Shown here piece after piece: positions 6,326 through 29,976 of a DNA stretch of 64,000 bases. Every line of letters begins with the position of its first letter. Positions within the stretch are counted from its first letter, which is position 1. The notes under the pieces are model-generated. The model was not told where the DNA came from and did no database searches. It saw only the letters and a list, made by a program, of their open reading frames with translations. The DNA lies in the IMG/VR virus record IMGVR_UViG_3300034022_000629, positions 1 to 64,000 of that record; one strand, written 5' to 3'. The position numbers were made by a program, and so were the translations under genes. Source of the DNA: a virus.

Positions 6326-6340
6326 TACTACGTGTATTTT

Positions 6341-6355
6341 TATATAAATATCACA
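6341..6355 (-). promoter_or_regulatory. recurrent intergenic motif TATATAAATATCACA (minus-strand sense TGTGATATTTATATA), a candidate phage promoter
   Basis: Same or near-identical motif 5-30 nt upstream of the starts of minus-strand genes at 1754-1767, 6341-6355, 7949-7962, 13173-13189, 52055-52068 and 53415-53430. A split version lies at 9341-9367. Confidence 0.4.
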
Positions 6356-6387
6356 GAATCACACTTATTGTGTTTTGTGTGATAATA

Positions 6388-7944: not shown

Positions 7945-7974
7945 ATTAATATAAATATCACAATTTTAGTTCAA

Positions 7975-8181
7975 TTATAGGATATGATCCTCTTCATCCT
8001 CATCAAATTTACCAAAGAGGTCATCACCCTTATAATCTGGGTGATTTTTACTCATATAATCTATTCCTCTAACCCAACTCCAAGAGATTAATGCGACAAC
8101 TATAAACATTAACGCGAAAACTGGTATGTATTCCATATTATTTATTCTTTTTATTATGTGATTTAGGTCTTCCGTTTTCAT
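7975..8181 (-). CDS. small membrane protein
   Basis: 68 aa with one TM helix and an acidic tail. Confidence 0.35.
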   Translation of the reverse strand: MKTEDLNHIIKRINNMEYIPVFALMFIVVALISWSWVRGIDYMSKNHPDYKGDDLFGKFDEDEEDHIL

Positions 8182-8500
8182 CTAACAGAACGAAAACTAT
8201 CTTATCAATTCTAACAATCGATTCTTTTGTATTTTTGTTTCTAACATCACAACATATCGTTACTGACGTTGTCCCGAATTTAACCAAGTCCATACCAAAT
8301 TCAATTATGTCACCAACCTTTGCGGTGGTTACAAAATCAATCTCAGACATCGCTTTGGTTACGATATTAGAACTACTCAACTGACAAATGGCAAAGATTG
8401 CCGCCTCCTCATCAATCCACTTTAATAATTGACCACCAAATAACGTACCTCTTGGGTTTAAATCACCTGGCTTAATCAACTTTCTAGTCCTATATATCAT
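8138..8500 (-). CDS. hotdog-fold acyl-CoA thioesterase (YciA/4HBT-like)
   Basis: GTLFGGQLLKWIDEEAAI matches the YciA-type thioesterase N-terminal motif; 120 aa. Confidence 0.55.
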   Translation of the reverse strand: MIYRTRKLIKPGDLNPRGTLFGGQLLKWIDEEAAIFAICQLSSSNIVTKAMSEIDFVTTAKVGDIIEFGMDLVKFGTTSVTICCDVRNKNTKESIVRIDKIVFVLLDENGRPKSHNKKNK

Positions 8501-8757
8501 TTTCTTTTTTGTTTTTCTCTGTACTCTCTATGTTTTTCTGACCAATTAGGGTCTCTATAATCAATTACGTAATCACAATAATCATAGTCGTTAACTATTT
8601 CTCTTGGTTGTGGTAAGTCTGTTTCATCCTCATCCGTTTTAATTATCTGTCTAACCTTACCATTAATAACTCTACGAACAATCCTCCAATACAATGAAGA
8701 CTTCTTTTCATTTCTAGGTCTATCTTTAACAATAGGTTTACGACGGCTTCTGCTCAT
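8497..8757 (-). CDS. small basic hypothetical protein
   Basis: 86 aa with an R/K-rich N-terminus. Confidence 0.3.
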   Translation of the reverse strand: MSRSRRKPIVKDRPRNEKKSSLYWRIVRRVINGKVRQIIKTDEDETDLPQPREIVNDYDYCDYVIDYRDPNWSEKHREYREKQKRK

Positions 8758-9319
8758 CAGTTAAGAATTTTATGATCTTTTCTTTTATTCCACTTTGTTT
8801 AATGCCCTCAATACTCTTCGGGGTTAAAACAAAATTATCCAATCCCCAAACTTCTTTCCATTCTTCTCCTTTACCCATATCCAAATCATCTACTGCAACC
8901 CATTCTGTGACCTCTGGGTGGTCTCTAAGGTATTGATGTATCTCCAAGGACCTTGACTGTTCTAAGTCCCACTGACGAGACCATATGAAGTTTTCAGGGA
9001 CATCACATTCACCTAAGTTTTTAGTAAATGCTATTGGTTTCTTTTTGAGTCCCTGTGACTCATAATATTCACCCATCTCCTCAACAGTGGCCCATCTTTT
9101 CCAATCAGATGAGACAACAATTTCAGCATTAGTTTCTTCCAGTATTTCATTTAGGGTATCGATTGCTTTCTTATTAAAATTATCAAAACGAGCGTCCAAC
9201 TCAAGTGACATAACTGATTGACTTAACTTACGTCCAACCTTTTTTTGTTTCTTAAATCTACCTCCCCATTCTGTTGACAAACAAATAACCCCATCGTGAT
9301 CTAAAAATATTACCTTCAT
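8738..9319 (-). CDS. HAD-like phosphatase
   Basis: The N-terminal FLDHDGVI matches the HAD motif I (DxDGx) nucleophile; 193 aa. Confidence 0.45.
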   Translation of the reverse strand: MKVIFLDHDGVICLSTEWGGRFKKQKKVGRKLSQSVMSLELDARFDNFNKKAIDTLNEILEETNAEIVVSSDWKRWATVEEMGEYYESQGLKKKPIAFTKNLGECDVPENFIWSRQWDLEQSRSLEIHQYLRDHPEVTEWVAVDDLDMGKGEEWKEVWGLDNFVLTPKSIEGIKQSGIKEKIIKFLTDEQKPS

Positions 9320-9373
9320 TTCTTCCTTTTTATGTTGTAAATATAAATAATATTTTCGAATATCACAAATTAA

Positions 9374-9799
9374 CTATGAATTTTCTTCAATATAATCGTG
9401 TTGTGGAGACCAAACTCCTTCAGAAGTTACTTTTGGATTCTCATTTCTATCAATCATAACCCATTCAGCTTTAACTAAACCCCAAGGTTTGAAATGTTCT
9501 AATACGTCCTCAAGTGAGAAACATTTACAACTGTAGATATCAAACTGAGCCATTGGTAATTCGTAATGATCCCAAATGTGAATTGATGCGTGTGATGTTG
9601 CCAAAGTAACCGTACCTGTTAAACCTTCATTACCTGGGTAATCAACGTAAACACTCGTAGGTCCACCTACAACTTCCATTTTAACTTTATGAACTAACTG
9701 GATAAACCATTCATTTAAATCACTAACTCTGTTCGGAGGATTAGTGAGCCAAACCTTCATCAAAAGGTGTTGGTGATAAGGAACAAATTCTTCTTGCAT
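9374..9799 (-). CDS. pyruvoyl-dependent S-adenosylmethionine decarboxylase-like proenzyme (SpeH/class 1 AdoMetDC family)
   Basis: ATSHASIHIWDH aligns with the ESHLTIHSFPE self-processing serine motif, and FDIYSCKCF with (I/V)D(V/I)YTCG; 141 aa. Confidence 0.5.
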   Translation of the reverse strand: MQEEFVPYHQHLLMKVWLTNPPNRVSDLNEWFIQLVHKVKMEVVGGPTSVYVDYPGNEGLTGTVTLATSHASIHIWDHYELPMAQFDIYSCKCFSLEDVLEHFKPWGLVKAEWVMIDRNENPKVTSEGVWSPQHDYIEENS

Positions 9800-9854
9800 A
9801 TATGTTTTTTTCTATTACATATATATCTTTGAATTTGTATTTTTCTAAGATTAT

Positions 9855-10103
9855 TTAAACTTTCTTATTCTTATAAAACCACATTATATGGGTTGTTAAT
9901 ATCGCTACGTTTACAAACATAGTTGGGTTATTCATAATCAGATATCCATACCAAATCCATAGAATGCAGGCTAGTGAATTTACCACCCTCAATTTAAACA
10001 TCGATTTAAACGTCATCGACATTAACACAACCACTGACGCAACCCAACCTAATACCTCAACCATTACTATATTTTTTAAAGTTCTTAACGAACCCAGTTT
10101 CAT
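9855..10103 (-). CDS. small 3-TM membrane protein
   Basis: Hydrophobic 82-aa ORF. Confidence 0.3.
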   Translation of the reverse strand: MKLGSLRTLKNIVMVEVLGWVASVVVLMSMTFKSMFKLRVVNSLACILWIWYGYLIMNNPTMFVNVAILTTHIMWFYKNKKV

Positions 10104-10743: not shown

Positions 10744-11319
10744 TTAAATTTTATTTATTTTAAATAACTCTTCGGTTAAATCAATATATGGTTGTGTTTC
10801 GGGATTATAATAGCCAACCATTTTGTCTATTTTTTCCTTATTGTCGTATGTTGTAGTTTTATTATGTTGTTCAACTCCCCAAATTGGTTCTGGTAATTCT
10901 CTAACATTAAACATAACCACTCGTTCTGGTGTTGCGCAAACATAAAAAACATCTTTGTCAGGTGATATAATCATATCGTCCCATTTTTTCTTTTCAACTA
11001 AGAAAGTATCATAATCTTTCTTTCTTCCTTTAGTTTCAATTCCACATTTTTCTAAAATACTACGCAAATCGATAGGAGAATATTTGTTATGTATATTTAA
11101 ATCTATCAAATCAGGATACAATTTTTTCAATTCAAAATAAATACTTGTTTCATCCTGACAAATGTAAGTTAGATATCTTTCTCTTCTTTTACTTAAAAGT
11201 AGTGGTATACAATTAATAATTGTATCTAAACAATTTTTATGTTCTTGTTCTTTTTCTAATTGTTCCGCTATCCGTTTTTCAATTTCTTCTACTGACAACT
11301 CTTCAATATCTCTCGACAT
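10744..11319 (-). CDS. hypothetical protein
   Basis: 191-aa ORF. Confidence 0.4.
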   Translation of the reverse strand: MSRDIEELSVEEIEKRIAEQLEKEQEHKNCLDTIINCIPLLLSKRRERYLTYICQDETSIYFELKKLYPDLIDLNIHNKYSPIDLRSILEKCGIETKGRKKDYDTFLVEKKKWDDMIISPDKDVFYVCATPERVVMFNVRELPEPIWGVEQHNKTTTYDNKEKIDKMVGYYNPETQPYIDLTEELFKINKI

Positions 11320-11903
11320 AAATCTTCTGGTATTTTACTTCTTTCATAAGCGTTAGATCTACCTTGTGTTCCTGTTTTAGAACCTCTAGGTGCTGCAACG
11401 TGACAAGGTGAACCATTCTTACACATTGGTCTTGGAACCCATACATCACTATTAGTCCATATGTCGGTTGGTTTCATTCTTTCATCACCATACTGACAAT
11501 ATGTAACAGTGTTTCGTTTGAACTTATCCATAAATGGCATCTTACGAAGAACTCCTCTTGGGTTTTCAATGAACCAATATGTTGGATTGAAATGTTCAAT
11601 CACTTCGATAGTTTTCTTAACTAATTCAATACCAAGTCGTGCGGTATCTGTCTTAGGAATGTACGCACCCTTACCTCCAGTCCAATGGTGACCTAAAGCG
11701 GCAACACTGAATCCTGTACAAGGTGGTGATGCCCAAATTACATCAGGTTGAAATGGAACTTTGGTTACATCAAAGTCTAAGATACTAACGGCATAATGTA
11801 TTCCGTCAAATGGTGTTAGGTCGGATGAAAATACTTCCATACCTAACTCTTCGGCAATCTTTCCAACGGAACGACTACCCGCAAATAATTCTAATACTTT
11901 CAT
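11289..11903 (-). CDS. DNA (cytosine-5)-methyltransferase, compact
   Basis: - Motif I: FAGSRSVG.
- Motif IV: ASPPCTGFS, carrying the catalytic Cys.
- Motif VI: FIENPRG (ENV block). Confidence 0.7.
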   Translation of the reverse strand: MKVLELFAGSRSVGKIAEELGMEVFSSDLTPFDGIHYAVSILDFDVTKVPFQPDVIWASPPCTGFSVAALGHHWTGGKGAYIPKTDTARLGIELVKKTIEVIEHFNPTYWFIENPRGVLRKMPFMDKFKRNTVTYCQYGDERMKPTDIWTNSDVWVPRPMCKNGSPCHVAAPRGSKTGTQGRSNAYERSKIPEDLCREILKSCQ

Positions 11904-12247: not shown

Positions 12248-12580
12248 TTATAGAGAAAAAGATTCTCCACATCCACAGGTGCGGGATGCATTAGGATTGG
12301 ACCAACTAAATCCTTTACCGTTTAAACCAGATGAGTATTGTAGCTCGGTACCATATAGATAAAGAACTGATTTCTTATCTACCACTAATTTAACTCCACC
12401 GCCCGCCTCGAACACGTCGTCCGATTCGTGTATGTTGTCATCAAAGTCCATTGTATATGAAAGACCTGAACATCCTCCACCCTTTACCCCAACACGAAGA
12501 TGGTGAGTGTCTGGATTTATACCATCACCCACCATAAGTTCTATCACGTGTTCTAATGCTAACTCACTTATTGTAATCAC
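12248..12580 (-). CDS. iscA: IscA/HesB-family Fe-S cluster assembly (A-type carrier) protein
   Basis: GGGCSGLSY and the C-terminal CGCGESF carry the three conserved Cys of A-type carriers; 110 aa. Confidence 0.7.
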   Translation of the reverse strand: MITISELALEHVIELMVGDGINPDTHHLRVGVKGGGCSGLSYTMDFDDNIHESDDVFEAGGGVKLVVDKKSVLYLYGTELQYSSGLNGKGFSWSNPNASRTCGCGESFSL

Positions 12581-12766: not shown

Positions 12767-13162
12767 TTAATTAATTAATATATCCATACCATTTTTCTTT
12801 CGGTAATCGTTTATCGCTTCTTTGATAGCATCTTCCGCTAATACCGAACAATGTATCTTAACTGGAGGTAATGATAGTTCCTCCACCAATTCCATATTAT
12901 CCATTTTAATTGCATCATCTATTGACATTCCTTTCAACCATTCGGTTGCTAAAGAGGATGCTGCGATTGCCGATCCACATCCGAAGGTTTTGAACTTAGC
13001 GTCGGTTATGATGTTATCGTTAACTTCAATTTGTAATCTCATTACATCACCACATTCTGGTGCACCCACTAATCCCGTACCTACATTAGATTTACTTTTA
13101 TCCAAAGTACCTACGTTTCGTGGGTTATTGAAATGATCTATTACCTTATCTCCGTATGCCAT
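12767..13162 (-). CDS. iscU: IscU/NifU-like Fe-S cluster scaffold
   Basis: The GAPECGDVMRLQI, TFGCGSAIAASS and LPPVKIHCSVLAEDAI motifs supply the three Cys plus His characteristic of IscU. Confidence 0.8.
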   Translation of the reverse strand: MAYGDKVIDHFNNPRNVGTLDKSKSNVGTGLVGAPECGDVMRLQIEVNDNIITDAKFKTFGCGSAIAASSLATEWLKGMSIDDAIKMDNMELVEELSLPPVKIHCSVLAEDAIKEAINDYRKKNGMDILIN

Positions 13163-14699: not shown

Positions 14700-15668
14700 T
14701 TAATATACTATTTTTTCTTGAGATTTCAAAATATCATCAACAATTTGTATCCTTTGACCAATCCATCTCATTACATTTACTGTCATTGAGTTACCAATAA
14801 TACCTTTAACATTTGAATATGATGGTTTTTTACCGTCAATTTCAAAGTCAAGATAATCATCAGGGAACCCCTGAAGTCTAAGTAATTCTTTCTCGGTAAA
14901 TTCTCGGATACCTCCCTCATCAACCCAATAGTTTGATGTTGAATCCTTACCAAACCCATCGGTTAATGTTTGAGAATATGATTTAGTTATCGTACCTGCG
15001 ATTCTAATTTGTCCGAGAAGACTTTTGGTACGGTCATCCCTCTCTTTAAGAGTCTCTTTTTTAAATTTCTTAAAACATCCTTCGTCAAATAATATTGCCG
15101 CAGGGACTCTCCAGTCGGTTCCACGATATCCAACAATGTAGACTCTTTTGCGTCGTTGGGGTACTCCAAAATATTGGGAGTCGAAAACCCTATAAGCGAT
15201 TGACCGTTTGGTACCTTGAACAATACCTCCCCCTCTGTTGATGTTGTCCGGTCTAAAATCGACACCTGTGAAAGAGGAGATGATGTCACACAACCCTTCT
15301 TTGTGTTCTTTATCAAAAACACCGTCGACGTTTTCCCATACGTTGTACTTGGGAGATTTTGACTCAAGAATTCCTCCATATTTAATGGCGAGTTGAGCAC
15401 GTAAGTCATCCATTCCTTTTCTGAGTCCTGAATTTGACCAAGCTTGGCACGGTGTGCCTCCGACGAACACGTCGAAATCTGTTTTTTTGAATTTTTCATC
15501 GTCTAGTAAGTTTAACATATTTGTATAAAAAGGAACATCAGGGTAATGATGTTTAAGGACTTTCTGTGGGAAACTTGCAAAGTCACATAGACCCGCACAT
15601 TCCCAACCAAGTGGCTCCCAAGCGACAGTCGCCGCCTCCATACCACTACATACTGAAAAATACTTCAT
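14700..15668 (-). CDS. DNA (cytosine-5)-methyltransferase
   Basis: - Motif I: FSVCSGMEAA.
- Motif IV: GGTPCQAWSNSG.
- Motif VI: NVWENVDG (ENV).
- Length 322 aa. Confidence 0.75.
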   Translation of the reverse strand: MKYFSVCSGMEAATVAWEPLGWECAGLCDFASFPQKVLKHHYPDVPFYTNMLNLLDDEKFKKTDFDVFVGGTPCQAWSNSGLRKGMDDLRAQLAIKYGGILESKSPKYNVWENVDGVFDKEHKEGLCDIISSFTGVDFRPDNINRGGGIVQGTKRSIAYRVFDSQYFGVPQRRKRVYIVGYRGTDWRVPAAILFDEGCFKKFKKETLKERDDRTKSLLGQIRIAGTITKSYSQTLTDGFGKDSTSNYWVDEGGIREFTEKELLRLQGFPDDYLDFEIDGKKPSYSNVKGIIGNSMTVNVMRWIGQRIQIVDDILKSQEKIVY

Positions 15669-15771
15669 ACGTTTGTAAGTTTAAATTGTTTCGATACAAA
15701 TGTAATAATAATTTCGGAAATACGAAAAAAAATTAAAATATTTTTCGGAATATGATATAACTAATTGATTA

Positions 15772-17166
15772 TTAGTTACTTAAAAAGTCATATTTTTCTT
15801 TTTTCCACTCTATATGTGGGTGTGATTTAAATCTATTAGTTAAGGTTTCAACTGCAGAATCAAATATATCAATTACTGGTGTGTTCGCCTTACCATATTG
15901 TTGAACTAGATTACCTTTTCTATATTGTAAGTTGATTCTTTTTCTTTTGTAAGTTAATGCAACATAAACATAAAGATTACCATTGGTAAATTGTTTACTC
16001 ATACAATTCTTCATAGTATATCCCTCCAACCTAAAATCTTCTTCCGTTAATAAAATCTTTGGTTTGTATACCTCACCATCAATATCAATCTCTGTTTCAA
16101 TAATATTAACAAAGTCCTCTGGGAATTCATATCTTAATTTATATCCACGAGCAAGGTGTAATTTAATTCCAGACCAGGACTCCAACATATTTTCAAACTC
16201 GTGATCGTCTTTTGCTTTGAACTTTAATTCTATATCTCTCTCCTCTAATAATTCCCTGATTGAAAATAACTTATTAAGATTGTATATTAAAGAATCAGAT
16301 CTCAATGTTTCTTTCTCCCAACCATTAATAAGTCTAACCATTGATTTCTTTTCCACATCATTCTTTAGTTGATGTATTTTTTTGTTTGGTGGTAAATCAT
16401 AGCAATGTTGTTCCCAAACAAATTGTTTCAAATATTCTAGATAGTTGTCACCAAATAATTTACAAATATAATTTAATGAACTAATGTGAATTGGTTTATC
16501 ACACTTTGTATTTAATTGACTAACTAGATACTTTGATTTAATTCCATATGAATCAAGGACTGACGGTAGGAACTTATTATCGTTCTTAACTAACCACTTC
16601 TTCTTTGGGTATTCATACTTAATGTCTTCATACACTCCGTCGTGTGATTTAATATCTTTAACATCTAAATGATAATCAACTAACATATCATAAAGTGGAT
16701 TAACAACACTTTTATGTTCGTAGTTTTTAGATTTAATGAAATCACTTTTAAAATTAGGTTCTATTTTCCTATAAATGATATCGTTGATTGATTCAATTGC
16801 TCTATCATACTTGACACCCCAAAATTTTAATCTCTTCTCACCTCTATAATAACCATTCTCACTTAACTCGGAAAGTAATTTAAATGAATTCTTTTTAGTA
16901 AGGTATGAAGACTTGAATTGTTTCTCATCTGTTAAGTTATTATTGTTAAGTCTATAACCAACAACGATATCTCCAGTTGTAATGTTTAAATTAAATGTAT
17001 GAGTAAATGTGATTTGTTTTTTGGTTCCCCACCTTTGATAATCAAAATCAAACGTGCCAACAAATTCAATGTTGTTATCGTCAGAATACAATTTCAAATC
17101 ACATAGTGAAACTGATCCACTTTTACTATCTACCTTTTTCTGATTGTGTATTAATAATAAATCCAT
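15772..17166 (-). CDS. PcfJ-like domain protein (paralogue A)
   Basis: The C-terminal EGYTMKNCMSKQF...YVYVALTYK aligns with the HCV-motif region of its neighbour. An internal LPSVLDSYGIKSK...ICKLFGDNYLEYL segment is shared with the 17205-19097 protein. Confidence 0.45.
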   Translation of the reverse strand: MDLLLIHNQKKVDSKSGSVSLCDLKLYSDDNNIEFVGTFDFDYQRWGTKKQITFTHTFNLNITTGDIVVGYRLNNNNLTDEKQFKSSYLTKKNSFKLLSELSENGYYRGEKRLKFWGVKYDRAIESINDIIYRKIEPNFKSDFIKSKNYEHKSVVNPLYDMLVDYHLDVKDIKSHDGVYEDIKYEYPKKKWLVKNDNKFLPSVLDSYGIKSKYLVSQLNTKCDKPIHISSLNYICKLFGDNYLEYLKQFVWEQHCYDLPPNKKIHQLKNDVEKKSMVRLINGWEKETLRSDSLIYNLNKLFSIRELLEERDIELKFKAKDDHEFENMLESWSGIKLHLARGYKLRYEFPEDFVNIIETEIDIDGEVYKPKILLTEEDFRLEGYTMKNCMSKQFTNGNLYVYVALTYKRKRINLQYRKGNLVQQYGKANTPVIDIFDSAVETLTNRFKSHPHIEWKKEKYDFLSN

Positions 17167-17204
17167 CTACATAAAATATAGATGGATTTATTTAGTTTGT
17201 GTAG

Positions 17205-19097
17205 TTAAAACTCTTCGAAGGGTAGTCTGATACCGTTGAATATATCTGTAACCCTTACTGGTAGTAACTCTTGGGTGATTTCAATACCGTTTATTTTAAC
17301 TGGAACTTTCTTCTTTTCTTTCCAATTAAGGGTTCCCCATCTTGAACATTGTTCTATTTTTTGAGATAACAGTAAAAGACCGTCTTCAAATGTTGATGGT
17401 GGTGAGGCGTTACAGAACGACCTTTGTTGAATACATTTACCTGATTGGATATCAAATTCACACGTTACCCTATCCATACCACTTTGATTTCTTAACGATA
17501 TTATTATGGATTTATCTTTATCAGAATAGGTTGCAACACAGTGATGCATAAACGCACCTTCTTCAATATAATCTTCTTCCCTTCTAAGAACGTAAGGGTA
17601 TAGTGTGTGTAATGATTCGTCATTTTCCAAACACTCTAAAGGTTTTTGTAAATCTTCTAAAACTTTATCTTCGTATTGATATTCAATGACCCAACCTTTT
17701 TTGATTGCTCCCATCATTTTGGTTAACTCTCTATGTTCGACGTGAAATTCGTCCATAGTTCTAGACTTCAAATAAATTGATGGGTCATATTCTCTCACCC
17801 TATCAATCATTCTTATGTGGTCATCAACCAACTGAATAAATCTTTCCGAAAGAGCACTATTAGAATCCATATAATTAAACGAGTTAACTATCTTTATAAG
17901 GTTTTCTTTTTCAATATCCTTTAAACCATATACCTTATTCATTTCCCTTAACATCACCGCTTTGGTTCCAACATCATTATAATCTCTAATTCCAAATTTA
18001 CGAGTCGACTTTTCAAATATCATTGGGTTTACATTTCCAATGTACTTTGCATAATCACTATCAAAGTAATGAATGAACTTACATAAACCATAAATGTCAA
18101 TGTTAGGATATTCGTGTAAAATTTTAATAGTTGCTTTAGTTTTAATACCTAACATATCCAAAACGGATGCCACTAATTTCCTATCATTCTTTTTTAAGAA
18201 CTTCTCTGTGGGATATAACTTAGTTAGGAGGTAATCATAATGACTGTTTGGTACTTTAATCTTTTTATTTTTAATGAATGCAGTCATTACATCATTAATG
18301 AAACTTTCTTGATTTGATGAGTATGAAATGCAACCTAAATCAAGACCTAAAGATTCCTGGATTTTTCTTGTAAATAAAGTATCATCAAAACTATTTTGAT
18401 AGTCGTTATATAATCTTGAGTAATCACCTATCCCCTTTGTTTTAATTGTGAGGAATGATGTGTTCTGAATTAAATTATGTAACGATTGGAAACTATTTGT
18501 TCTGAATACTTGTGAATTTTGTTTACCTCTAACAGTTTTAGTTAGGGTTGTAAAATTACCAGTAACCAAATTAAAAGTTAAAGACTGAACAATATAACTT
18601 TTTTTAAAGTAAATACAATTATAACTTCTGTGTTTATCTTGTCTATAAAGTTTAATTGTAATCTTATCTCCGTGTCTTCTGATTGACCTCTCAATTATGG
18701 TAACATTAATTTCAGAAAGTGGTCTACCGTAATGACTTTTAATTTGTCTATCCTTTGTTGTTTCAAAGGAACAATTACCTAACTTATTTTTCTTAACGTA
18801 GTAAGTTAAACGAAAGGTTTCTTGTACTGGTTCAGTTGTTGCAGCGTAAAACACCTTCTTCTTTTTCTTCTCAGGTAAGGAGACTATTTTACCTATGGGT
18901 TTTAAGACGTTAACTAAACGTTCAAGTTTTTTATTTGGGGCATCCCAATCAATTTCTAAACTATCTAAATCATCAATTAATGACTTGGATAATTCCCTTT
19001 TCTCATCTAATCTACAATAATCTTTAAATGGGGTTATCGTTGCGTATTGAAATTTTTCTCTTAAAATGTCTTCCATATCGTTAAGTTTAGGGTACAA
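17205..19097 (-). CDS. PcfJ-like domain protein (paralogue B, contains a conserved HCV motif)
   Basis: The C-terminal EEGAFMHHCVATYSDKDKSIIISLR matches the conserved HCV signature recalled for the PcfJ-like family; 630 aa. Confidence 0.5.
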   Translation of the reverse strand: MYPKLNDMEDILREKFQYATITPFKDYCRLDEKRELSKSLIDDLDSLEIDWDAPNKKLERLVNVLKPIGKIVSLPEKKKKKVFYAATTEPVQETFRLTYYVKKNKLGNCSFETTKDRQIKSHYGRPLSEINVTIIERSIRRHGDKITIKLYRQDKHRSYNCIYFKKSYIVQSLTFNLVTGNFTTLTKTVRGKQNSQVFRTNSFQSLHNLIQNTSFLTIKTKGIGDYSRLYNDYQNSFDDTLFTRKIQESLGLDLGCISYSSNQESFINDVMTAFIKNKKIKVPNSHYDYLLTKLYPTEKFLKKNDRKLVASVLDMLGIKTKATIKILHEYPNIDIYGLCKFIHYFDSDYAKYIGNVNPMIFEKSTRKFGIRDYNDVGTKAVMLREMNKVYGLKDIEKENLIKIVNSFNYMDSNSALSERFIQLVDDHIRMIDRVREYDPSIYLKSRTMDEFHVEHRELTKMMGAIKKGWVIEYQYEDKVLEDLQKPLECLENDESLHTLYPYVLRREEDYIEEGAFMHHCVATYSDKDKSIIISLRNQSGMDRVTCEFDIQSGKCIQQRSFCNASPPSTFEDGLLLLSQKIEQCSRWGTLNWKEKKKVPVKINGIEITQELLPVRVTDIFNGIRLPFEEF

Positions 19098-19146
19098 ATA
19101 TAGTAAAAAAAGTTAGGATATACGTATTTATATAAAAAAATATATT

Positions 19147-19275
19147 ATGGCGAAAGCAAAAGGTTCATCCACATCTCAAAAGGTTTCTTTTGGAAAAAAA
19201 GGTAAAGGTAAATATAAGAAAAATTTTGGTCCAAAAGCCCAAAAACCAAAGAGATACAGAGGTCAAGGTCGTTAA
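19147..19275 (+). CDS. 42-aa lysine-rich basic protein (MAKAKGSSTSQKVSFGKKGKGKYKKNFGPKAQKPKRYRGQGR)
   Basis: Hand-translated plus-strand ORF in a gap between minus-strand genes, preceded by a TATTTATATAAAAAAATATATT A/T box. Below the track cutoff. Confidence 0.3.
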   Translation: MAKAKGSSTSQKVSFGKKGKGKYKKNFGPKAQKPKRYRGQGR

Positions 19276-19751
19276 TTTAAACGACCCCCTCCTTTGTACG
19301 ATTTAATGTATCTTGGCTCATCAATACTACTGAGCTTGACATTCTCGTATCTGTTGGCTGCGTGGACAAAAATCCTATTACCTAAGTAAACCCCACAGTG
19401 CCAACCACTTGGACTTTGAGTACTTCTAAAATAGATAAGATCTCCCATTTGTAGACTATCTTTAGTAACCCTAGTTATTTGATACCATTGTTGGTAACAA
19501 ACATCCTTTAAATCAAGACCATACACATCTTTATACAATCTTTTATTGAATTGTGAACAATCAATACCCTTTTTAGTACTACCCCCTAATTTATATTTAA
19601 CACCTAACCAATTATTAATGAAATTACCTAAAGGTGGGTTATTTATTTGTAACCATTCTACATAATCTGCAAATTGATTTCGTTGTACTGTCTGTGCCAC
19701 CAACCCCCTAGAGATTAGCATTAGCGTTGTAATTAAAATAATTTTTCTCAT
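19272..19751 (-). CDS. secreted NlpC/P60 (C40) cell-wall peptidase
   Basis: Signal peptide (MRKIILITTLMLISRGLVAQ), then YKLGGSTKKGIDCSQF carrying the catalytic Cys and HCGVYLG carrying the His. Confidence 0.7.
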   Translation of the reverse strand: MRKIILITTLMLISRGLVAQTVQRNQFADYVEWLQINNPPLGNFINNWLGVKYKLGGSTKKGIDCSQFNKRLYKDVYGLDLKDVCYQQWYQITRVTKDSLQMGDLIYFRSTQSPSGWHCGVYLGNRIFVHAANRYENVKLSSIDEPRYIKSYKGGGRLN

Positions 19752-20056
19752 AATAACGATAATAAAATATACGATAGTTTATATCCCACAAACGCTCCCA
19801 ATGCGGATGGGATTGGAAAGACTATCAACTTTCCAAAGTCTGTAACATATTTGGGTCGATTAACAATCCTACCCATAAAAAAATAATAACAAAGATAACA
19901 TAAAAATACTGCAATGTCTGTACGTGTGGCAATAAACACTACTAATGTTGCACCCAAGAATCCAAATACAAAGTTATCTCTTACACCTTCCCAAACTTCT
20001 TTATTTGTGGCTTCTTTCCATTCTTTAATTATTTTCTTAGTTCTATTTTTTACCAT
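19748..20056 (-). CDS. small 2-3 TM membrane protein, holin candidate
   Basis: Lies immediately upstream of, and overlaps, the peptidase gene; hydrophobic core with charged termini. Confidence 0.35.
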   Translation of the reverse strand: MVKNRTKKIIKEWKEATNKEVWEGVRDNFVFGFLGATLVVFIATRTDIAVFLCYLCYYFFMGRIVNRPKYVTDFGKLIVFPIPSALGAFVGYKLSYILLSLL

Positions 20057-20171: not shown

Positions 20172-21320
20172 TTAATTACTTAATGGTGCTTTTATTGACG
20201 GGTGATATTGGTAATTTTCTAATATTACATCTTTTTCTCCGAATGAAAATATACCATCCATAATGTGTACAGTTGGTAAATTAAATGGTTCTCTGTTTAT
20301 TTGTTCTTTAGCTTGTTCAATATGGTTCTTATATAAATGAACATCACCTAAATTACCTATTAATTCATCTGGTACCATACTCATTTCATCCGCAATCATC
20401 ATTAATAATAAACCATATGACGCAATGTTAAATGGTAAACCTAAAAATGTATCAACAGATCTTTGATTCCACATTAAGGATATTGCTCGTTTAGGTATAT
20501 TGTGTGATTGTAACTCTTCACTCAATCCCCCACCAAATGGAACTATATCATCAACCATTGATTTAAACCTTTCCTCACCAACTTTCTTCTTTAATAAGTC
20601 CCACATCTCTTCCCCAGTTAACTTTCTAGTGTAGACTTGAAAACCATAATGACAAGGCGGTAAAACCATTTGGTCTAACTCACCCACGTTCCAAGCACTT
20701 ACCATCAATCTTCTACTATCTGGATTTGTTTTAAGTTCATCAATTAGATTTTGAATTTGGTCTAAATAAATTGGGTCACCGTTATCGGATATGTCTTGTA
20801 ATCCACCCCATTTTCTCCATTGTTTACCATAAATTGGTCCGAGTTCTCCCCATTCCTTAGCAAACTCATCATCAATTTTGATAAGATTAATAAATTCTTC
20901 TTGAGTTAATGGTGTTAACATATCCGAATTACTGAACAGTATTTCAATGTGTGGTTGGATACCCATAATATCTCCACATTTATATCCATCAATAATCTCA
21001 TTAATCTTTTTAGAATAGTTTTTATAAGCATCACCATTCCAAATGCTACATCCATTCATCACTAGATACTTGATGTTAGTACTACCACTTAAAAACCAAA
21101 TCAACTCGGTTACCATAGTTTTCCAAGCCATTTTCTTAGTTGTTAATAATGGAAACCCCTGAGCCATTCTATGACGTATTTGTCTACCAAAAACTGAAAT
21201 GGTTCCAGTTCCAGTTCTATCCGTTTTAACAACTCCATTATCCAAAATATCTTGTAGTAAATCTTGATACTTCTTATCAATCGTATTCATCATATTAATT
21301 TTTTTCTTCTTCAATTTCAT
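20172..21320 (-). CDS. thyA: thymidylate synthase family enzyme (ThyA-like, dUMP-specific Asn) with two large insertions
   Basis: - RTGTGTISVFG motif present.
- GELGPIYGKQWR motif present.
- LPPCHYGFQVY carries the catalytic Cys.
- GLPFNIASYGLL carries the Asn that specifies dUMP.
- Length 382 aa against roughly 264-316 aa for a typical ThyA. Confidence 0.75.
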   Translation of the reverse strand: MKLKKKKINMMNTIDKKYQDLLQDILDNGVVKTDRTGTGTISVFGRQIRHRMAQGFPLLTTKKMAWKTMVTELIWFLSGSTNIKYLVMNGCSIWNGDAYKNYSKKINEIIDGYKCGDIMGIQPHIEILFSNSDMLTPLTQEEFINLIKIDDEFAKEWGELGPIYGKQWRKWGGLQDISDNGDPIYLDQIQNLIDELKTNPDSRRLMVSAWNVGELDQMVLPPCHYGFQVYTRKLTGEEMWDLLKKKVGEERFKSMVDDIVPFGGGLSEELQSHNIPKRAISLMWNQRSVDTFLGLPFNIASYGLLLMMIADEMSMVPDELIGNLGDVHLYKNHIEQAKEQINREPFNLPTVHIMDGIFSFGEKDVILENYQYHPSIKAPLSN

Positions 21321-22952: not shown

Positions 22953-24308
22953 ATGAAGAAAAAAATATTACTTTTATCTGATGATTTAAGAATGACATCA
23001 GGTATTGCTACTATGTCCAAAGAAATCGTATTAGGTACCGTCCACAAATACGATTGGGTTCAGTTGGGTGCATCGATTAGTCACCCTGAAATTGGGAAGA
23101 TTGTTGATGTAAATGACGACATAAGAAAACGCACCGGAGTTGAAGATGCGAATTTAAAGATTATACCATACAATGGTTATGGGGATATCAATATGATTCG
23201 TAGATTGTTAGACGAAGAAAAACCAGATGCCATTCTTCATTTTACGGACCCACACTATTGGCAATGGTTATACGATAACGAACACGAGATAAGACAGCGT
23301 GTACCAATTTTATATTGGCACATTTGGGATGACTTACCAGATCCACAATACAATAGAGACTTCTATGAAAGTTGTGATTGGGTTGGTGGTATTTCAAAAC
23401 AAACATACGGTATTATTCATCGTGTTAGTAAAAGAACCGATAAGGTTACATTTAAACCTTTGGAAGATTGGCAGATAAGTTACGTTCCTCACGGTATTAA
23501 TCCAGATTTATTTAAACCGTTAGATACTATCAGTGAAGAAGTAACTAAATTTATTCACGGAGAAAAGAAATATGACTTTGTTCTATTTTACAACAGTAGA
23601 AACATTAGAAGGAAACAACCAAGTGACGTAATTTATTCATTTAAATTATTCTGTGATAGATTACCAAAAGAAAAGGCTGAAAAATGTTTATTGCTAATGC
23701 ACACATCTCCGGTTGATGAGAATGGTACAGACTTACCTGCAGTTATTAATGACCTTTGTCCTTATGATGTTAGATTCACGGGTATTAAATTAGAACAAGA
23801 TAAGCTAAATGAATTCTATAACATTGTTGATTGTACAATTAACATTGCAAACAATGAAGGATTTGGTTTAACGACGGCAGAATCTTTAATGTCGGGAACA
23901 CCAATCATTGTAAATGTTACTGGTGGGTTACAGGATCAATGTGGATTTGATTTTAGTGCCGATGATTATATTAGTGTCGGTACTTTACATAGTAAGGAAG
24001 AAAGAAGTCAAACAGCTCACGGTGAATGGGTTATTCCTGTTTGGCCATCGGCAATTAACTTAAATGGTTCAGTACCAACACCATACATTTTTGATGATAG
24101 GGTTAATGATATTGAAGTTGCTGATGCTATTATGAAAATGTATAAGTTTAGTAAAAAGAAGAGAAAAGAAAAAGGATTAAAAGGTAGAGAGTTTATGATT
24201 AACAATCTATCAAATAAAATAATGTGTGATAAACTGATTGAAGGTATTGATACCACAATGGAAAAATTCACACCAAGAAAAAGATTCGACACATATAAAG
24301 TAATATGA
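22953..24308 (+). CDS. GT-B glycosyltransferase (group 1 / GT4-like)
   Basis: NEGFGLTTAESLMSGTPII matches the GT4 E-x7-E motif. Confidence 0.6.
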   Translation: MKKKILLLSDDLRMTSGIATMSKEIVLGTVHKYDWVQLGASISHPEIGKIVDVNDDIRKRTGVEDANLKIIPYNGYGDINMIRRLLDEEKPDAILHFTDPHYWQWLYDNEHEIRQRVPILYWHIWDDLPDPQYNRDFYESCDWVGGISKQTYGIIHRVSKRTDKVTFKPLEDWQISYVPHGINPDLFKPLDTISEEVTKFIHGEKKYDFVLFYNSRNIRRKQPSDVIYSFKLFCDRLPKEKAEKCLLLMHTSPVDENGTDLPAVINDLCPYDVRFTGIKLEQDKLNEFYNIVDCTINIANNEGFGLTTAESLMSGTPIIVNVTGGLQDQCGFDFSADDYISVGTLHSKEERSQTAHGEWVIPVWPSAINLNGSVPTPYIFDDRVNDIEVADAIMKMYKFSKKKRKEKGLKGREFMINNLSNKIMCDKLIEGIDTTMEKFTPRKRFDTYKVI

Positions 24309-25561
24309 TTAAACCATTTTTATTATTTAGAGGACCAGTAAAAACAAGAAGCGGATATGGTGCACATTCAAGAGACTTACTTGAATCACTTTATAAGATG
24401 GACTTGTTTAATATTAAAATTGATAGTTGTTCTTGGGGAAGTACTCCATTAACCGCATTAGAAGAAGGGAATGAATTCCATAATTGGATTAATGAAAACA
24501 TCATTACCAACTTACCGGATCAACCAGAGATTTATGTACAAGTAACCGTACCAAATGAATTTCAAAGAGTTGGTAAATTTAATATAGGTGTGACCGCAGG
24601 TATTGAAACAACTGTGGCACCTAAAAATTGGGTGGATGGTTGTAATAGGATGGATCACATCATAACCACTTCAACATTTTCTAGAGACGTTTTATTACAA
24701 ACAGTTTATAATGAAACAGAAAATAATACTGGAAAATTAATTAAACAATTTAGAATTGAAAAACCCGTTTCAGTATTGTTTGAAGGTGTTGATACATCAA
24801 TATATAATAACAAATATAAAGGTATCGATGTCGATATTACGGAAGATTTTGCGTATCTTTTTGTTGGTCATTGGTTGAAAGGTGATACTGGTCAAGATCG
24901 TAAAGATGTTGGAATGTTGATTAGATGTTTCATTGAAGCATTTAAGGATGAAGAAGTAAAACCTGCGTTAGTTCTTAAAACGTCGTCAGCAACTTTCTCA
25001 GTTAGACAAAGAGAAGATTTTAGAAAGAAAATTGAGGATATTGTTAAGTTAAGTAAAACCGATACTCCTCCATCAATTTATCTTTTGTTTGGTGAATTAA
25101 CCAATGAGGAAATGAATGAGTTATATAATCATCCTAAAATAAAAGCAATGGTTTCAATAACAAAAGGTGAAGGATTTGGTAGACCGTTATTAGAATTTAC
25201 AATGACGGGTAAACCTGTGATAGCATCTAATTGGTCTGGACATAAAGACTTCTTACCTATGGAGAAAGCTATAATGGTTGGTGGTTCATTAACTGAAGTA
25301 CACGAAAGTGTGATAGATGATTTTATCATTAAGGGTTCCAAATGGTTCACAGCCAATTATAACGAGTTTACAGAAGTGATGAAAATTGTTATTAAAGATT
25401 ATGATAAGTTTTTGGAGAAGTCTGAATTGCTTAGAGAGTTTAACTCTGAAAACTTTACGTTGGATAATATGAAAAATAAGTTTGAATCTATTTTAAAACA
25501 AAATACAATTCAACCAAAAGAACATAAATTGGTTTTACCAAAACTCACAAAAGTTAACTAA
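24305..25561 (+). CDS. GT-B glycosyltransferase (group 1 / GT4-like)
   Basis: KGEGFGRPLLEFTMTGKPVIAS matches the E-x7-E motif. Confidence 0.6.
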   Translation: MIKPFLLFRGPVKTRSGYGAHSRDLLESLYKMDLFNIKIDSCSWGSTPLTALEEGNEFHNWINENIITNLPDQPEIYVQVTVPNEFQRVGKFNIGVTAGIETTVAPKNWVDGCNRMDHIITTSTFSRDVLLQTVYNETENNTGKLIKQFRIEKPVSVLFEGVDTSIYNNKYKGIDVDITEDFAYLFVGHWLKGDTGQDRKDVGMLIRCFIEAFKDEEVKPALVLKTSSATFSVRQREDFRKKIEDIVKLSKTDTPPSIYLLFGELTNEEMNELYNHPKIKAMVSITKGEGFGRPLLEFTMTGKPVIASNWSGHKDFLPMEKAIMVGGSLTEVHESVIDDFIIKGSKWFTANYNEFTEVMKIVIKDYDKFLEKSELLREFNSENFTLDNMKNKFESILKQNTIQPKEHKLVLPKLTKVN

Positions 25562-25812
25562 TGTCATTTAAATTTCTCACAGGTAACCAAGATATGTTTA
25601 CACATTTGGAACCCACCCAACTATTAACATTAAGACAACCAACAATGATTAACAATGTTGAATTTTGTTTTCAGTTTGGTGATAATGAACCCGTAGTATT
25701 TGCAACAGGACCTAATGAATGTCAAATTCGATTAAGTCCACAAACAGATGCTAATATTATGTTCACAGATAATCATAGACAGTTTAAATTATTTGCAAGA
25801 GAAAGACAATGA
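25561..25812 (+). CDS. hypothetical protein
   Basis: 83 aa; start overlaps the preceding stop (ATGA-type coupling at 25561). Confidence 0.35.
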   Translation: MSFKFLTGNQDMFTHLEPTQLLTLRQPTMINNVEFCFQFGDNEPVVFATGPNECQIRLSPQTDANIMFTDNHRQFKLFARERQ

Positions 25813-26018
25813 GAAAGTTTACCTTCTTTGTTGGTATTAGTAAACCAACACTAACCGCAACTTGGTCACCTGAATTCAATGATAATTTATTTACTAACCA
25901 CGGTATTGATGCTGAGGCGGAACTAACAAGAATAATGTCAGCAGAAATTGCAAGAACAATAGATGAAGATATAATAAGAACATTAACAAGAGAAATAAAC
26001 GGAGGATTAAGAGCCTAA
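25809..26018 (+). CDS. hypothetical protein
   Basis: 69 aa; 4-nt overlap with the upstream gene. Confidence 0.35.
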   Translation: MRKFTFFVGISKPTLTATWSPEFNDNLFTNHGIDAEAELTRIMSAEIARTIDEDIIRTLTREINGGLRA

Positions 26019-26019
26019 T

Positions 26020-26865
26020 ATGAAAATTTTAGTAACAGGAGGAGCAGGATTTATAGGAACTAATCTAATTAAGAGATTATTATTTGAAGGGCATAATGTA
26101 GAATCTATTGACAACTACGATAGTGGGTTAGTGTCCAATCACGTAGATGGGTGTAACTATCATACGGGAGATATAGAATCTATTGGTTTGATGGATAAAG
26201 ACTTTGATATGATATATCATTTAGCGGGACTAAGTAGAATCCAACCATCGTTTAAAAATCCAACAGAAACTTTCAGAGTTAATACTATAGGTACCGAGAG
26301 TGTTTGTTCATTTGCAAAGAAAATAAATGCTAAGGTTGTATATGCGGGTTCGTCGTCAAGATGGCACGACCCATTTCAATCACCATACGCTTGTTACAAA
26401 CATATGGGTGAAGAGATTTGTAAAATGTACAGAAAGGTTTATGATATAGACATTGAAATTGTTAGATTTTATAATGTTTACGGACCTAACGAAGTTGTTG
26501 ACGGTGATTGGGCCGCAGTTATTGGTATATGGAGAAGACAAGTTATTAATAAGGAACCAATTACTATTGTTGGTGACGGTAATCAAAGACGAGATTTCAC
26601 ACACGTTATTGATATAGTTGATGGTTTATATAGGGTTGGTACGAGTAACGAAAAACACGAAGACGCTTGGGAGTTAGGTACTGGAACCAATTATTCAATA
26701 CTTGAAGTCTATGAAATGTTTAAGGAAAAATTTGGGTGTGATAAGTTACACATTGAGAATCAGAAGGGTAACTATCGTATAACTTTGCGTGAAAATAACG
26801 ATGCAATCGACCGTTTAGGTTGGTCACCAGAAAATAGATTAAAAAATTATGTAGATAGTTTATGA
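26020..26865 (+). CDS. NAD-dependent sugar epimerase/dehydratase (short SDR, UDP-hexose 4-epimerase-like)
   Basis: N-terminal Rossmann motif ILVTGGAGFIG and a catalytic YACYK (YxxxK). Confidence 0.7.
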   Translation: MKILVTGGAGFIGTNLIKRLLFEGHNVESIDNYDSGLVSNHVDGCNYHTGDIESIGLMDKDFDMIYHLAGLSRIQPSFKNPTETFRVNTIGTESVCSFAKKINAKVVYAGSSSRWHDPFQSPYACYKHMGEEICKMYRKVYDIDIEIVRFYNVYGPNEVVDGDWAAVIGIWRRQVINKEPITIVGDGNQRRDFTHVIDIVDGLYRVGTSNEKHEDAWELGTGTNYSILEVYEMFKEKFGCDKLHIENQKGNYRITLRENNDAIDRLGWSPENRLKNYVDSL

Positions 26866-27485
26866 AAATAAGTTTTGCTATAACAGTATCCAAAGAGATA
26901 AACGAAATTAAACATTTAGTTCCATTCTTATTAGAACATAAACGACCTCAAGATGAGATAGTTGTTTTGTTTGATGAAAAAAATGGAGACAAGGAAGTGT
27001 TAGATTTTTTATTGCCTTTTAATATCAAACCTAACGTACAAACCTGGAGAGGTTTTGATTTTGATTATAACTTTGCCGATTGGAAGAATAAATTAAATTC
27101 TTATTGTGTTGGGGATTATATATTTCAATTAGATGCTGATGAGATGGTAAGTGAGTATATGATAAAGAACGTTACTGAAATCATTTCTATGAATAAGGAC
27201 GTTGAGTTATTTTTTCTACCAAGAATAAACATAGTAAGTGGAATAACTCAGGATCATATTAATAGATGGGGATGGATAGTTGATGACTTAGGTAGGATTA
27301 ACTTTCCAGACTTTCAAGGTAGAATATATAAGAAAGGTTTGGAATGGCAGGGAAAAGTTCACGAAAGAATTGTAGGAACGAAGTCCTATTCATTACTACC
27401 ATCAGATGAAGAGTCGTATTGTATTAAACATTACAAAGACATATCTAAACAAGAACAACAAAATAACTTATACAGTAAAATATGA
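26862..27485 (+). CDS. putative GT-A-fold glycosyltransferase
   Basis: FQLDADEMV is DxD-like; gene context. Confidence 0.35.
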   Translation: MKISFAITVSKEINEIKHLVPFLLEHKRPQDEIVVLFDEKNGDKEVLDFLLPFNIKPNVQTWRGFDFDYNFADWKNKLNSYCVGDYIFQLDADEMVSEYMIKNVTEIISMNKDVELFFLPRINIVSGITQDHINRWGWIVDDLGRINFPDFQGRIYKKGLEWQGKVHERIVGTKSYSLLPSDEESYCIKHYKDISKQEQQNNLYSKI

Positions 27486-29972: not shown

Positions 29973-29976
29973 GATT

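Follow-up and report, generated by a model that had tools for sequence, protein, structure and literature searches.

An uncultured jumbo phage of approximately 320 kb, sampled here by a window of 64,000 nucleotides, carries two neighboring genes, B followed by A (Table 1), whose products are ancient duplicates with a common domain plan. To judge from the loci compared below, the pair is apparently a fixed, syntenic core module of a deep lineage of phages with genomes of about 300-335 kb, and the start codon of A is enclosed in a conserved RNA hairpin just after the stop codon of B. Our best explanation, to which we give close to an even chance, is that B and A are two subunits of one PcfJ-type machine, vertically inherited in this uncultured lineage and performing one of its core functions.

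The two open reading frames of the original prediction were confirmed, both on the minus strand and co-oriented. B had been listed with 630 codons and a TTG start at 19097; an ATG located seven codons inside this frame (MEDIL...) is the start in all homologs, and because of this the true B is probably the shorter, 623-residue version.

Table 1. Features of the B-A locus and its immediate surroundings
Feature	Position	Strand	Description	Evidence
Gene B	17205..19076	-	Canonical PcfJ-like protein, 623 aa (probable start)	PF14284 match, AF2, BFVD, motif residues
Gene A	15772..17166	-	Degenerate PcfJ-like paralog, 464 aa	BLASTP, hhalign, AF2, dN/dS
RNA hairpin at the B-A junction	17156..17192	-	17-bp stem, 3-nt loop	
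B stop codon and conserved non-coding motif	17193..17207	-	TAA-CTACACAA; stop at 17207-17205	
Promoter-like divergent intergenic region upstream of B	19077..19142	-		Two lineage-conserved motifs
Dcm-type m5C methyltransferase	14700..15668	-	322 aa; neighbor outside the module, directly downstream of A	

Sequence and structure of the two proteins

Protein B consists of an N-terminal extension with a long β-sheet domain, a helical middle part, and the C-terminal PcfJ α/β domain (residues ~440-600); its AF2 model has a pLDDT of 83.8. Its residues 493-567 match PF14284 with 45.3 bits (E 1e-11), where Pfam sets the gathering cut-off at 25 bits, and the isolated C-terminal domain scores 47.6 bits. 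In a BFVD fold search, 7 of the 11 best matches of B are annotated as PcfJ-like (E 1e-26 to 4e-3), and the remaining four have no such annotation in the table. B retains the full set of canonical PcfJ residues, as defined from cellular PcfJ sequences used as reference, i.e., (E)EG..MHHCV..Y, S.R, T, Q.R..CN, and the upstream E(W)H. The positions in B are E447 H448, E506 G507, H511 H512 C513, Y517, S527 R529, T538, Q550 R552, and C555 N556. All of them other than S527 and R529 are invariant across 107 sequences; these two are invariant in an alignment of 30 sequences, and among the 107 S527 is again invariant and R529 is kept in at least 90 %.

Protein A has the three domains of B minus the first ~160 residues of the latter (AF2 pLDDT 88.7). 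Composition-adjusted BLASTP aligns A with B at E 1e-11 (22 % identity over ~300 residues), including the segments that had been quoted as common to both proteins, which are real and alignable. A comparison of the two family profiles by hhalign gives a probability of 99.7 %, E 3e-25, and 390 aligned columns (B163-587 to A55-456) that take in the whole PcfJ domain. Genome G+C content is 31-34 %, and both proteins are rich in K, N and I, which might suggest that their likeness is a compositional artifact of AT-rich coding, or that one of the two frames is no gene; we regard the probability of this as negligible. The Smith-Waterman score of 185 compares with 48.7 +/- 8.7 for shuffled sequences (z 15.7), and this value, together with the hhalign probability, excludes the low-complexity, K/N-rich artifact that the original prediction had itself considered. 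Hundreds of full-length homologs of each protein, dN/dS far below 1, and confident AF2 models for both argue in the same direction.

The PF14284 profile, which had been proposed as a check, recognizes B and fails to detect A: the A protein of the window has no match in Pfam at E <= 1, its isolated C-terminal domain has none at E <= 10, and 4 of 30 A-family relatives match PF14284 weakly (best E 3.5e-4). Thus, the designation of the pair as PcfJ-like paralogs holds fully for B, and for A by profile homology only. Of the canonical residues, A has only E381 G382, C388, Q422 and N428 left, and the other sites are substituted (HH to KN, so that MHHCV becomes MKNCM; EWH to ESW; R529 to L; T538 to N; R552 to Y/F; C555 to A/T). 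As most of the canonical residues are missing, A is best described from its sequence as a divergent relative and not as a canonical member of the family. On the other hand, A has a particular invariant cluster, namely C388, K391, Q392, Q414, Q422, K426 and N428, and because these Cys, Gln, Asn and Lys residues are kept, A may be active in its own right instead of being a dead partner.

Both proteins also share a helical segment, YP.(E/K)K(F/W)L.KND.K...(I/V)LD..GIK(S/T)K, which may be HTH-like, judging from the pattern and the predicted helices only; Pfam HTH models do not match it. Domain-wise Pfam scans at E <= 10 found nothing for the N-terminal or the helical domains.

Searches with both proteins and both family profiles by phmmer and hmmsearch returned nothing credible among PDB sequences, and neither A nor B has a match in NCBIfam or PADLOC; their matches in PHROGs carry no functional label. 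A homolog search that started from a Planctomycete PcfJ yielded 22 matches only and no informative domain fusions, and we found no functional study in the literature on PcfJ, PcfJ-like proteins, PF14284 or PcfK. The earlier statement that PcfJ has no known function therefore agrees with the literature, solved structures, NCBIfam and PADLOC. Among 50,697 GenBank phages, megablast with positions 15000-20000 and tblastn with full-length A and B gave no match, and only the isolated C-terminal domain of B retrieves PcfJ genes of cultured phages.

Conservation of the pair

At 50 % identity, the B family falls into 1148 clusters with E <= 1e-3, of which 271 have E <= 1e-30, and the match is full-length in all of the top 150 clusters. 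The window and its 130+ related loci come from IMG/VR viral contigs on which phage genes are present. A follows B directly in 82 of the 83 loci with room for it, and is itself directly preceded by B in 52/52 loci; this adjacency holds when B is as little as 34 % identical, and the same order is seen on JGI/ENA/Logan contigs. The gap between the two genes is 39-99 nt, and order and gap are essentially invariant. One locus of the B family (L062) has no A; this observation, and the fact that PcfJ of other phages works as a single copy, speak against a two-subunit arrangement.

Purifying selection on both genes is strong (dN/dS 0.04-0.10 overall). A is better conserved than B, with a mean column identity of 69 % and dN/dS of 0.044-0.059, versus 53 % and 0.062-0.10 for B. 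The divergence of A follows the divergence of B (Spearman 0.63) and hardly that of thyA or NlpC/P60.

The junction hairpin

The 3' arm of the hairpin holds the ATG of A (17166-17164) and codons 2-4. The minimum free energy is -19.4 (z -6.5), a value reached by 0 of 200 shuffles; across relatives, it is 93 % paired, and covariation is 0.184 versus 0.114 (0/500). The ATG of A is base-paired in 50 of 51 relatives, control starts have z of about 0, and no comparable structure is seen at the start codon of either B or the methyltransferase. It is the structure and not the sequence that is kept, with compensatory changes present and with both arms rewritten where the N-terminus of A differs (the L068 group with M-I-T, L053, L085). 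The G.U pairs are valid on the mRNA strand only. Rfam has no family for this hairpin. In addition, TTTTAACTACACAA(T), located between the B stop codon and the hairpin, is preserved in nearly all relatives, even those with B only ~35-45 % identical.

Structurally, the hairpin is that of a start-codon-hairpin coupled gene pair, which suggests translational coupling of A to B. There is no Shine-Dalgarno sequence at the A start. The base of the stem lies 9-22 nt past the B stop (median 14; 12 nt in the window), i.e., about where the footprint of a terminating ribosome ends or slightly beyond, and for this reason re-initiation or scanning may be required for coupling. Alternatively, the hairpin might do no more than restrain the expression of A, or it might be the binding site of a repressor. 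As for other interpretations of the junction, an intrinsic terminator was rejected, as conservation does not extend to the U-rich tail (L068 group) and the stem is within the coding start of A; so was a fusion of the two proteins by read-through or frameshifting, because the frames differ and the gap varies in length.

Neighboring genes

The upstream side of B has a small ORF in divergent orientation, an NlpC/P60 gene and, ~1 kb from the pair, thyA. The intergenic region contains a TATAAATA-like motif (19125-19132) and TATATTTG (19095-19102), the latter fitting TAnnTTTG; both are conserved across the lineage, and TAnnTTTG is found at the same position in 16/18 diverse loci. A promoter function of this region is no more than inferred from these motifs, since neither the T4-late-promoter pattern (TATAAATA) nor the Bacteroidota -7 pattern (TAnnTTTG) is enriched window-wide; a scan of the region for sigma-70 promoters and terminators gave chance-level results. 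As a hint only, TAnnTTTG would fit a host among the Bacteroidota, and bacteria of AT-rich, aquatic type are candidate hosts.

The original prediction placed the pair between two m5C methyltransferase genes. In fact both, the Dcm-type gene of Table 1 (PF00145, E 2e-44) and a weaker match at 11289-11903 (1.4e-5), are on the downstream side, so that there is no bracketing. The Fe-S genes reported from the region are real (NifU_N, 12767-13162; Fe-S_biosyn, 12248-12580). An orphan Dcm-type methyltransferase usually comes after A, and in about 20 loci this slot is occupied by a different Dcm of ~317-328 residues or by nothing; dS of the methyltransferase is 0.14-0.32, versus 0.3-2.7 for A and B. Read from these sequence comparisons, the methyltransferase is mobile cargo in a variable slot and the pair is the core module, so its linkage to the pair is not obligate and the pair should not be regarded as part of a restriction-evasion island.

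Possible function of the pair

If B and A are subunits of one machine, a ribosome finishing B would open the hairpin or re-initiate, and A would be translated mainly on these occasions, so that the two proteins would be made together in fixed proportion. The conserved cis-acting RNA element argues for such co-production, and hence for joint action. B and A would assemble into a hetero-oligomer, in which B may supply a His/Cys site, either catalytic or metal-binding, and A, which retains the HTH-like helical segment common to both, may be a partner without catalytic activity. Such a complex would act on nucleic acid in the early or DNA-metabolism program, and not as an accessory anti-defense factor. 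A role in DNA transactions is plausible by analogy, because PcfJ genes of other phages are found in replication, recombination and nucleotide-metabolism modules (see below).

It is somewhat unlikely, in our estimation, that B and A are two independent, subfunctionalized PcfJ-like proteins that form no complex, with the hairpin keeping A low or responsive to a regulator such as a repressor, an RNase or temperature. A does have its own invariant cluster and is more conserved than B, PcfJ is single-copy elsewhere, and the base of the stem is slightly past the usual reach of a terminating ribosome; however, neither order nor spacing changes in more than 130 locus observations, the hairpin is always immediately after the B stop, and A and B have diverged in a correlated way. 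None of these is decisive, but all are easier to explain by joint function. The counter-defense role that had been suggested for the pair is not supported, and we consider it unlikely that B and A are counter-defense or establishment factors directed at host restriction or other defenses, possibly in concert with the orphan m5C methyltransferase gene that lies downstream. The family takes its name from a conjugative plasmid, PcfK-like and PcfJ genes of Bacteroidales stand beside tra genes, an orphan methyltransferase is the usual neighbor of A, and PcfJ genes of temperate phages belong to the early region, a frequent site of anti-restriction genes as well. Yet accessory anti-defense genes usually turn over, whereas this pair is under the purifying selection described above and has a fixed, not patchy, distribution throughout the divergent lineage, and it is the methyltransferase that varies. 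The database results, from PADLOC (a library of defense and not of anti-defense proteins), NCBIfam and the unlabeled PHROGs, also fail to indicate such a role.

With respect to biochemical activity, it is quite improbable, though worth stating, that PcfJ is a thiol/His-dependent, possibly GNAT-like, enzyme modifying nucleic acids or proteins, here in the form of an obligate heterodimer of active and degenerate subunits with hairpin-set stoichiometry and an essential early or replication function. A more specific version, in which the C-terminal domain of PcfJ would be a GNAT-like transferase that depends on acyl-CoA and the pair would consist of an active and an inactive protomer modifying a protein, a nucleotide or tRNA, is a long shot.

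Conjugative elements and phages widely encode PcfJ-like proteins, which have no assigned function. No new mechanism is revealed here; the pair belongs to a known, uncharacterized family, and its value is that of a well-characterized lead. The alignment of more than 1000 clusters at 50 % identity defines which PcfJ residues matter, and comparison of the canonical and the degenerate paralog suggests that the functional site is made up of the His/His/Cys, Arg and Cys-Asn positions. Were the improbable reading as a thiol/His-dependent modifying heterodimer true, the pair, from a globally distributed jumbo-phage lineage, would be the first tractable handle on the role of PcfJ in mobile elements generally.

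Relation to known systems

PF14284 is named after PcfJ of the Enterococcus faecalis plasmid pCF10. B resembles this family in its above-threshold score, in the motifs (E)EG..MHHCV..Y, S.R, (S/A)T and Q.R..CN..P, and in the upstream E(W)H that it shares with cellular PcfJ proteins. It differs in having ~440 further residues (β-sheet and helical), kept in 150+ clusters at 50 % identity, in being phage-borne and not plasmid-borne, and in being paired with a degenerate paralog that Pfam misses.

In conjugative transposons of Bacteroidales, for which one reference case was examined (L165; Parabacteroides distasonis NZ_OY725750.1), WP_178495392.1 and WP_320643334.1 form a PcfK-like and PcfJ pair. 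There too a PcfJ-domain protein, of ~430 residues, adjoins a fixed small partner gene, beside genes for DNA transfer. The partner, however, is a 136-residue PcfK-like protein encoded upstream, whereas here it is the 464-residue PcfJ paralog encoded downstream, and the context is conjugative there and viral here. No PcfK-like gene was seen near the pair among the small ORFs scanned, and the neighbors are thyA, NlpC/P60 and the Dcm methyltransferase, not PcfK or tra genes.

Classical examples of start-codon hairpin coupling are the MS2 coat-replicase junction and several E. coli ribosomal-protein operons. As in these examples, the downstream start is locked in a stable stem just 3' of the upstream stop; unlike in them, the start here lacks a Shine-Dalgarno sequence, the stem begins at the distance from the stop given above, and coupling is inferred from sequence.

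Further parallels are PcfJ genes of cultured phages, such as Bacillus phage BigBertha (gp50, AGY46558.1, 472 residues), Streptococcus phage Javan110 (Javan110_0036) and Campylobacter phage CJLB-5 (QPB07545.1). Their C-terminal domains are 25-32 % identical to that of B, their length of ~460-470 residues is like that of A, and B can be aligned across ~500-650 columns with BFVD models of PcfJ-like proteins from phages. They differ in being single genes with no tandem paralog, and in being missed by full-length tblastn. The PcfJ gene adjoins a replication initiator and SSB in Javan110, follows an initiator and the DnaI loader in Javan270, and follows Bet in CJLB-5. In BigBertha it adjoins thyA, a dNMP kinase and DHFR, and proximity to thyA is common to this gene and the B-A pair.

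Two homologous PcfJ-like proteins

Genes A (downstream) and B (upstream) lie in AT-rich DNA (G+C 27-37 % over the window in 2-kb windows, about 31-34 % near the pair), where transcription runs leftward across positions 1-21.8 kb. B as listed is counted from a TTG; all B homologues begin at an ATG seven codons further in (MEDIL...), so that B most probably has 623 residues. It is a new member of the Pfam PcfJ family PF14284 (45.3 bits, cut-off 25), whereas A has no match in Pfam, and weak PcfJ matches are seen in only 4 of 30 A-family members; the expected match to PF14284 thus holds for B and not for A itself.

The relationship between A and B is nevertheless clear. BLASTP aligns A186-458 with B295-596 (E 1e-11, 22 % identity), taking in both the internal segment and the C-terminal block that the original prediction had described as common to the two. 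In a Smith-Waterman shuffle test z is 15.7, and profile-profile comparison, with 30-sequence alignments of each family, gives a probability of 99.7 % and E 3e-25 over 390 columns, B163-587 corresponding to A55-456. Homology to B therefore spans nearly all of A, with about 160 N-terminal residues extra in B; the two are PcfJ-like paralogues, as predicted, and their similarity is no low-complexity artefact. Confident AlphaFold2 models (pLDDT 83.8 for B, 88.7 for A) have a common plan, with a long antiparallel β-sheet, an all-helical middle and a C-terminal α/β domain. In BFVD, B is matched best by PcfJ-like proteins from uncultured phages, in alignments of about 500-650 columns.

We aligned the C-terminal domain of six B-family, six A-family and five cellular PcfJ proteins, the last from one Planctomycete MAG locus and its relatives. 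The superfamily signature consists of an upstream E(W)H, followed by (E)EG..MHHCV..Y, S.R, (S/A)T and Q.R..CN..P. B has it in full (E447 H448, E506 G507, H511 H512 C513, Y517, S527 R529, T538, Q550 R552, C555 N556), and these residues are nearly all invariant among 107 sequences. All that A has left of it is EG, its cysteine C388, Q422 and N428: MHHCV has become MKNCM, EWH has become ESW, CN has become (A/T)N, and the two signature arginines are replaced by Leu and Tyr/Phe. Despite this loss, A is better conserved than B, with mean column identity of 69 % versus 53 % and dN/dS, for the same genome pairs, of 0.044-0.059 versus 0.062-0.10. A is thus a degenerate yet strongly constrained paralogue and not a decaying copy.

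A fixed pair in a changing neighbourhood

Full-length relatives of A or B are missing from GenBank phages; metagenomes hold hundreds of homologues of both, many on 300-340-kb contigs. An exhaustive profile search gave 1148 clusters at 50 % identity, 271 of them at E <= 1e-30, and the best 150 of the 1148 are all full-length, at about 600 aa. When 185,579 species genomes were scanned by sequence pattern, one weak cellular match only came up, in a Planctomycetaceae MAG; there, a long PcfJ-domain ORF is followed immediately by a secretion ATPase of CpaF/VirB11 type and a gene resembling prepilin peptidase.

B has 137 loci in IMG/VR, and A has 158. A directly follows B in 82 of the 83 fetched loci with room for it, and B stands before A in all 52 cases, at identities down to 34 % (B) and 37 % (A). 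The exception, L062, has farther downstream a 223-aa ORF with a segment, ...TKWCVTQESHYKRY..., loosely recalling the PcfJ HCV..Y motif. Across loci, the identity of A to its window counterpart rises and falls with that of B (Spearman 0.63, versus 0.0-0.4 for thyA or NlpC/P60), a measure that rests on the window as single reference and is given little weight.

The slot after A is usually occupied by the 322-aa Dcm; six loci have a different, non-orthologous Dcm of about 317-328 aa (MKKxxVILxLFAGYGG...), and about 15 have none (about 20 loci in all: L003, L004, L014, L020, L022, L076, L044, L047, L051-54, L061, L063, L070, L077-82). Relative to close relatives, dS of Dcm is 0.14-0.32, several-fold below A and B (flanking genes, 0.3-2.7), which suggests recent exchange between phage genomes. 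Given the constant B-A order and the changing gene after A, the pair is a fixed module and Dcm a swappable cassette, or mobile cargo. This argues against the accessory counter-defence role proposed for the pair.

Neither is the pair bracketed by two m5C methyltransferase genes, since both lie downstream of A, together with small ORFs and the Fe-S genes, whose presence was correctly noted. The IscU gene is missing in the close relative L001 and is thus variable cargo. The thymidylate-synthase homologue (382 aa) has intact PCH and PFNIASY motifs; the 266-position Pfam model is spread over residues 16-381, indicating about 100 inserted residues. Its identity to relatives does not follow that of the pair, being for example 77-85 % where B has 36 %. 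An extremely basic conserved ORF, MAKAKGSSTSQKVSFGKKGKGKYKKNFGPKAQKPKRYRGQGR, is transcribed in the direction away from B, its start adjoining a conserved promoter-like region. Elsewhere, large auxiliary-metabolism islands include several glycosyltransferases and an NAD-dependent epimerase. Of two small ORFs between glycosyltransferase genes, the 69-aa one, with a precomputed Pfam Gp23 (T4 major-capsid) match in L001, may represent a piece of a capsid gene or a small protein of decoy type.

Features of the window and of related loci
Feature	Position	Strand	Remark
A	15772-17166	-	464 aa, long ORF
B, ORF as listed	17205-19097	-	630 aa from TTG
B, most probable	17205-19076	-	623 aa
Octamer CTACACAA	17197-17204	-	non-coding
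TAnnTTTG (TATATTTG)	19095-19102	-	about 20-30 nt upstream of ATG of B
TAnnTTTG	15697-15704	-	upstream of Dcm
Dcm-type m5C methyltransferase	14700-15668	-	322 aa
NifU/IscU-like	12767-13162	-	NifU_N E 7e-50
HesB/IscA-like Fe-S carrier	12248-12580	-	E 2e-15
Second m5C-methyltransferase-like	11289-11903		weak match
Basic ORF	19143-19271	+	42-47 aa; L001 9802-9930, L003 7796-7930, L005 7792-7929
NlpC/P60	19272-19751		upstream of B
thyA homologue	20172-21320	-	upstream of B
Auxiliary-metabolism island	22953-32177	+	
Small ORFs	25561-26018	+	83 and 69 aa; L001 2059-2516
Tryptophan halogenase	35919-37436	-	auxiliary metabolism; E 4e-105
Auxiliary-metabolism island	54037-63999	-	
Carbamoyltransferase	56158-57837	-	in island
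Radical-SAM/SPASM enzyme	61838-63100	-	in island
223-aa ORF, L062	12571-13242	+	
Cellular match, L007 (CAZTPX010000005.1)	5775-8528, 8656-9936		Planctomycetaceae MAG

The B-A junction

The 38-nt junction reads TAA-CTACACAAACTA-(AATAAATCCATCTATAT-TTT-ATGTAGATGGATTTATT), the part in parentheses being a 17-bp hairpin whose 3' arm holds the ATG of A and the next three codons. Its MFE is -19.4 kcal/mol (z -6.5; no equal fold in 200 shuffles), and it is among the best inverted repeats of the entire 64 kb (I4). Among 51 distinct junctions of relatives, 50 have every base of the ATG paired (median MFE over the junctions -15.6, median z -5.9); in the same comparison, the starts of B and Dcm have no comparable structure (z about 0), and Rfam holds nothing similar. 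The arms covary around the ATG (tagATG/CATCTA, tacATG/CATGTA, tatATG/CATATA), and codon 2 GAT, GAA or GAC is matched by AATCC, TTTCC or AGTCC in the opposite arm. In the L068 group, where A starts M-I-T, the 5' arm has a different sequence throughout (GTTATTGT), and two of the pairs are G.U. Pairing holds for 93 % of cells in a subset of 19 sequences without gaps, versus 24-57 % for slid partners, with double changes in four pairs (10 cells) and a covariation score above all 500 shuffles. RNAalifold predicts the same stem, and the G.U pairs are sensible on the mRNA strand only.

From the stop of B to the stem base there are 12 nt (relatives: median 14, range 9-22). This interval holds the octamer CTACACAA, directly after the TAA, which is present in nearly all related B-A junctions and kept even at about 35-45 % protein identity. 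No Shine-Dalgarno sequence precedes A or B. The simplest interpretation would be translational coupling, in which the ribosome finishing B would open the stem or re-initiate, and A would thereby be initiated; alternatively, the hairpin might throttle A or serve as the operator for an RNA-binding repressor.

TAnnTTTG is conserved at the position equivalent to that upstream of B in 16 of 18 diverse loci, with no enrichment window-wide (102 versus 104 expected). It resembles the -7 promoter element of Bacteroidota, and the host may therefore be a member of that group.

Possible function and comparison with other PcfJ genes

Sequence comparison links neither A nor B to any solved structure. In B, the invariant His-His-Cys lies at a helix N-terminus; taken with a distant His, the Cys-Asn, the Gln and both Arg, it suggests that B has either a catalytic site of thiol/His type or a metal site, most of which is missing from A. 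The best-conserved common segment, YP.EK.LKKND.KL..S.LD..GIK.K..IK, is predicted to form a helix-helix-turn-helix with conserved lysines, a model compatible with nucleic-acid binding, and matched no HTH model in a Pfam scan. We favour a core two-subunit module, the second subunit being a degenerate partner made in step with the first. The pair demonstrates no new mechanism; it provides the clearest definition of functional residues in the PcfJ family, and the case is clean and testable.

What the original prediction observed stands, except for the bracketing, and its interpretation was half right, in recognizing PcfJ-like paralogues of unknown function; our literature search found no functional study of PcfJ proteins. 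Elsewhere, the PcfJ gene of Bacillus phage BigBertha is two genes away from thyA, dNMP kinase and DHFR, and that of Streptococcus Javan110 is followed directly by a replication initiator and SSB. In Javan270 the gene comes after an initiator and a DnaI loader, in Campylobacter CJLB-5 it comes after Bet, and in a Parabacteroides element it adjoins a PcfK-like gene beside tra genes. These contexts would fit an early role related to DNA. Compared with what has been described, the obligate pair of canonical and degenerate proteins with a start-codon hairpin is a new form of a family already known.
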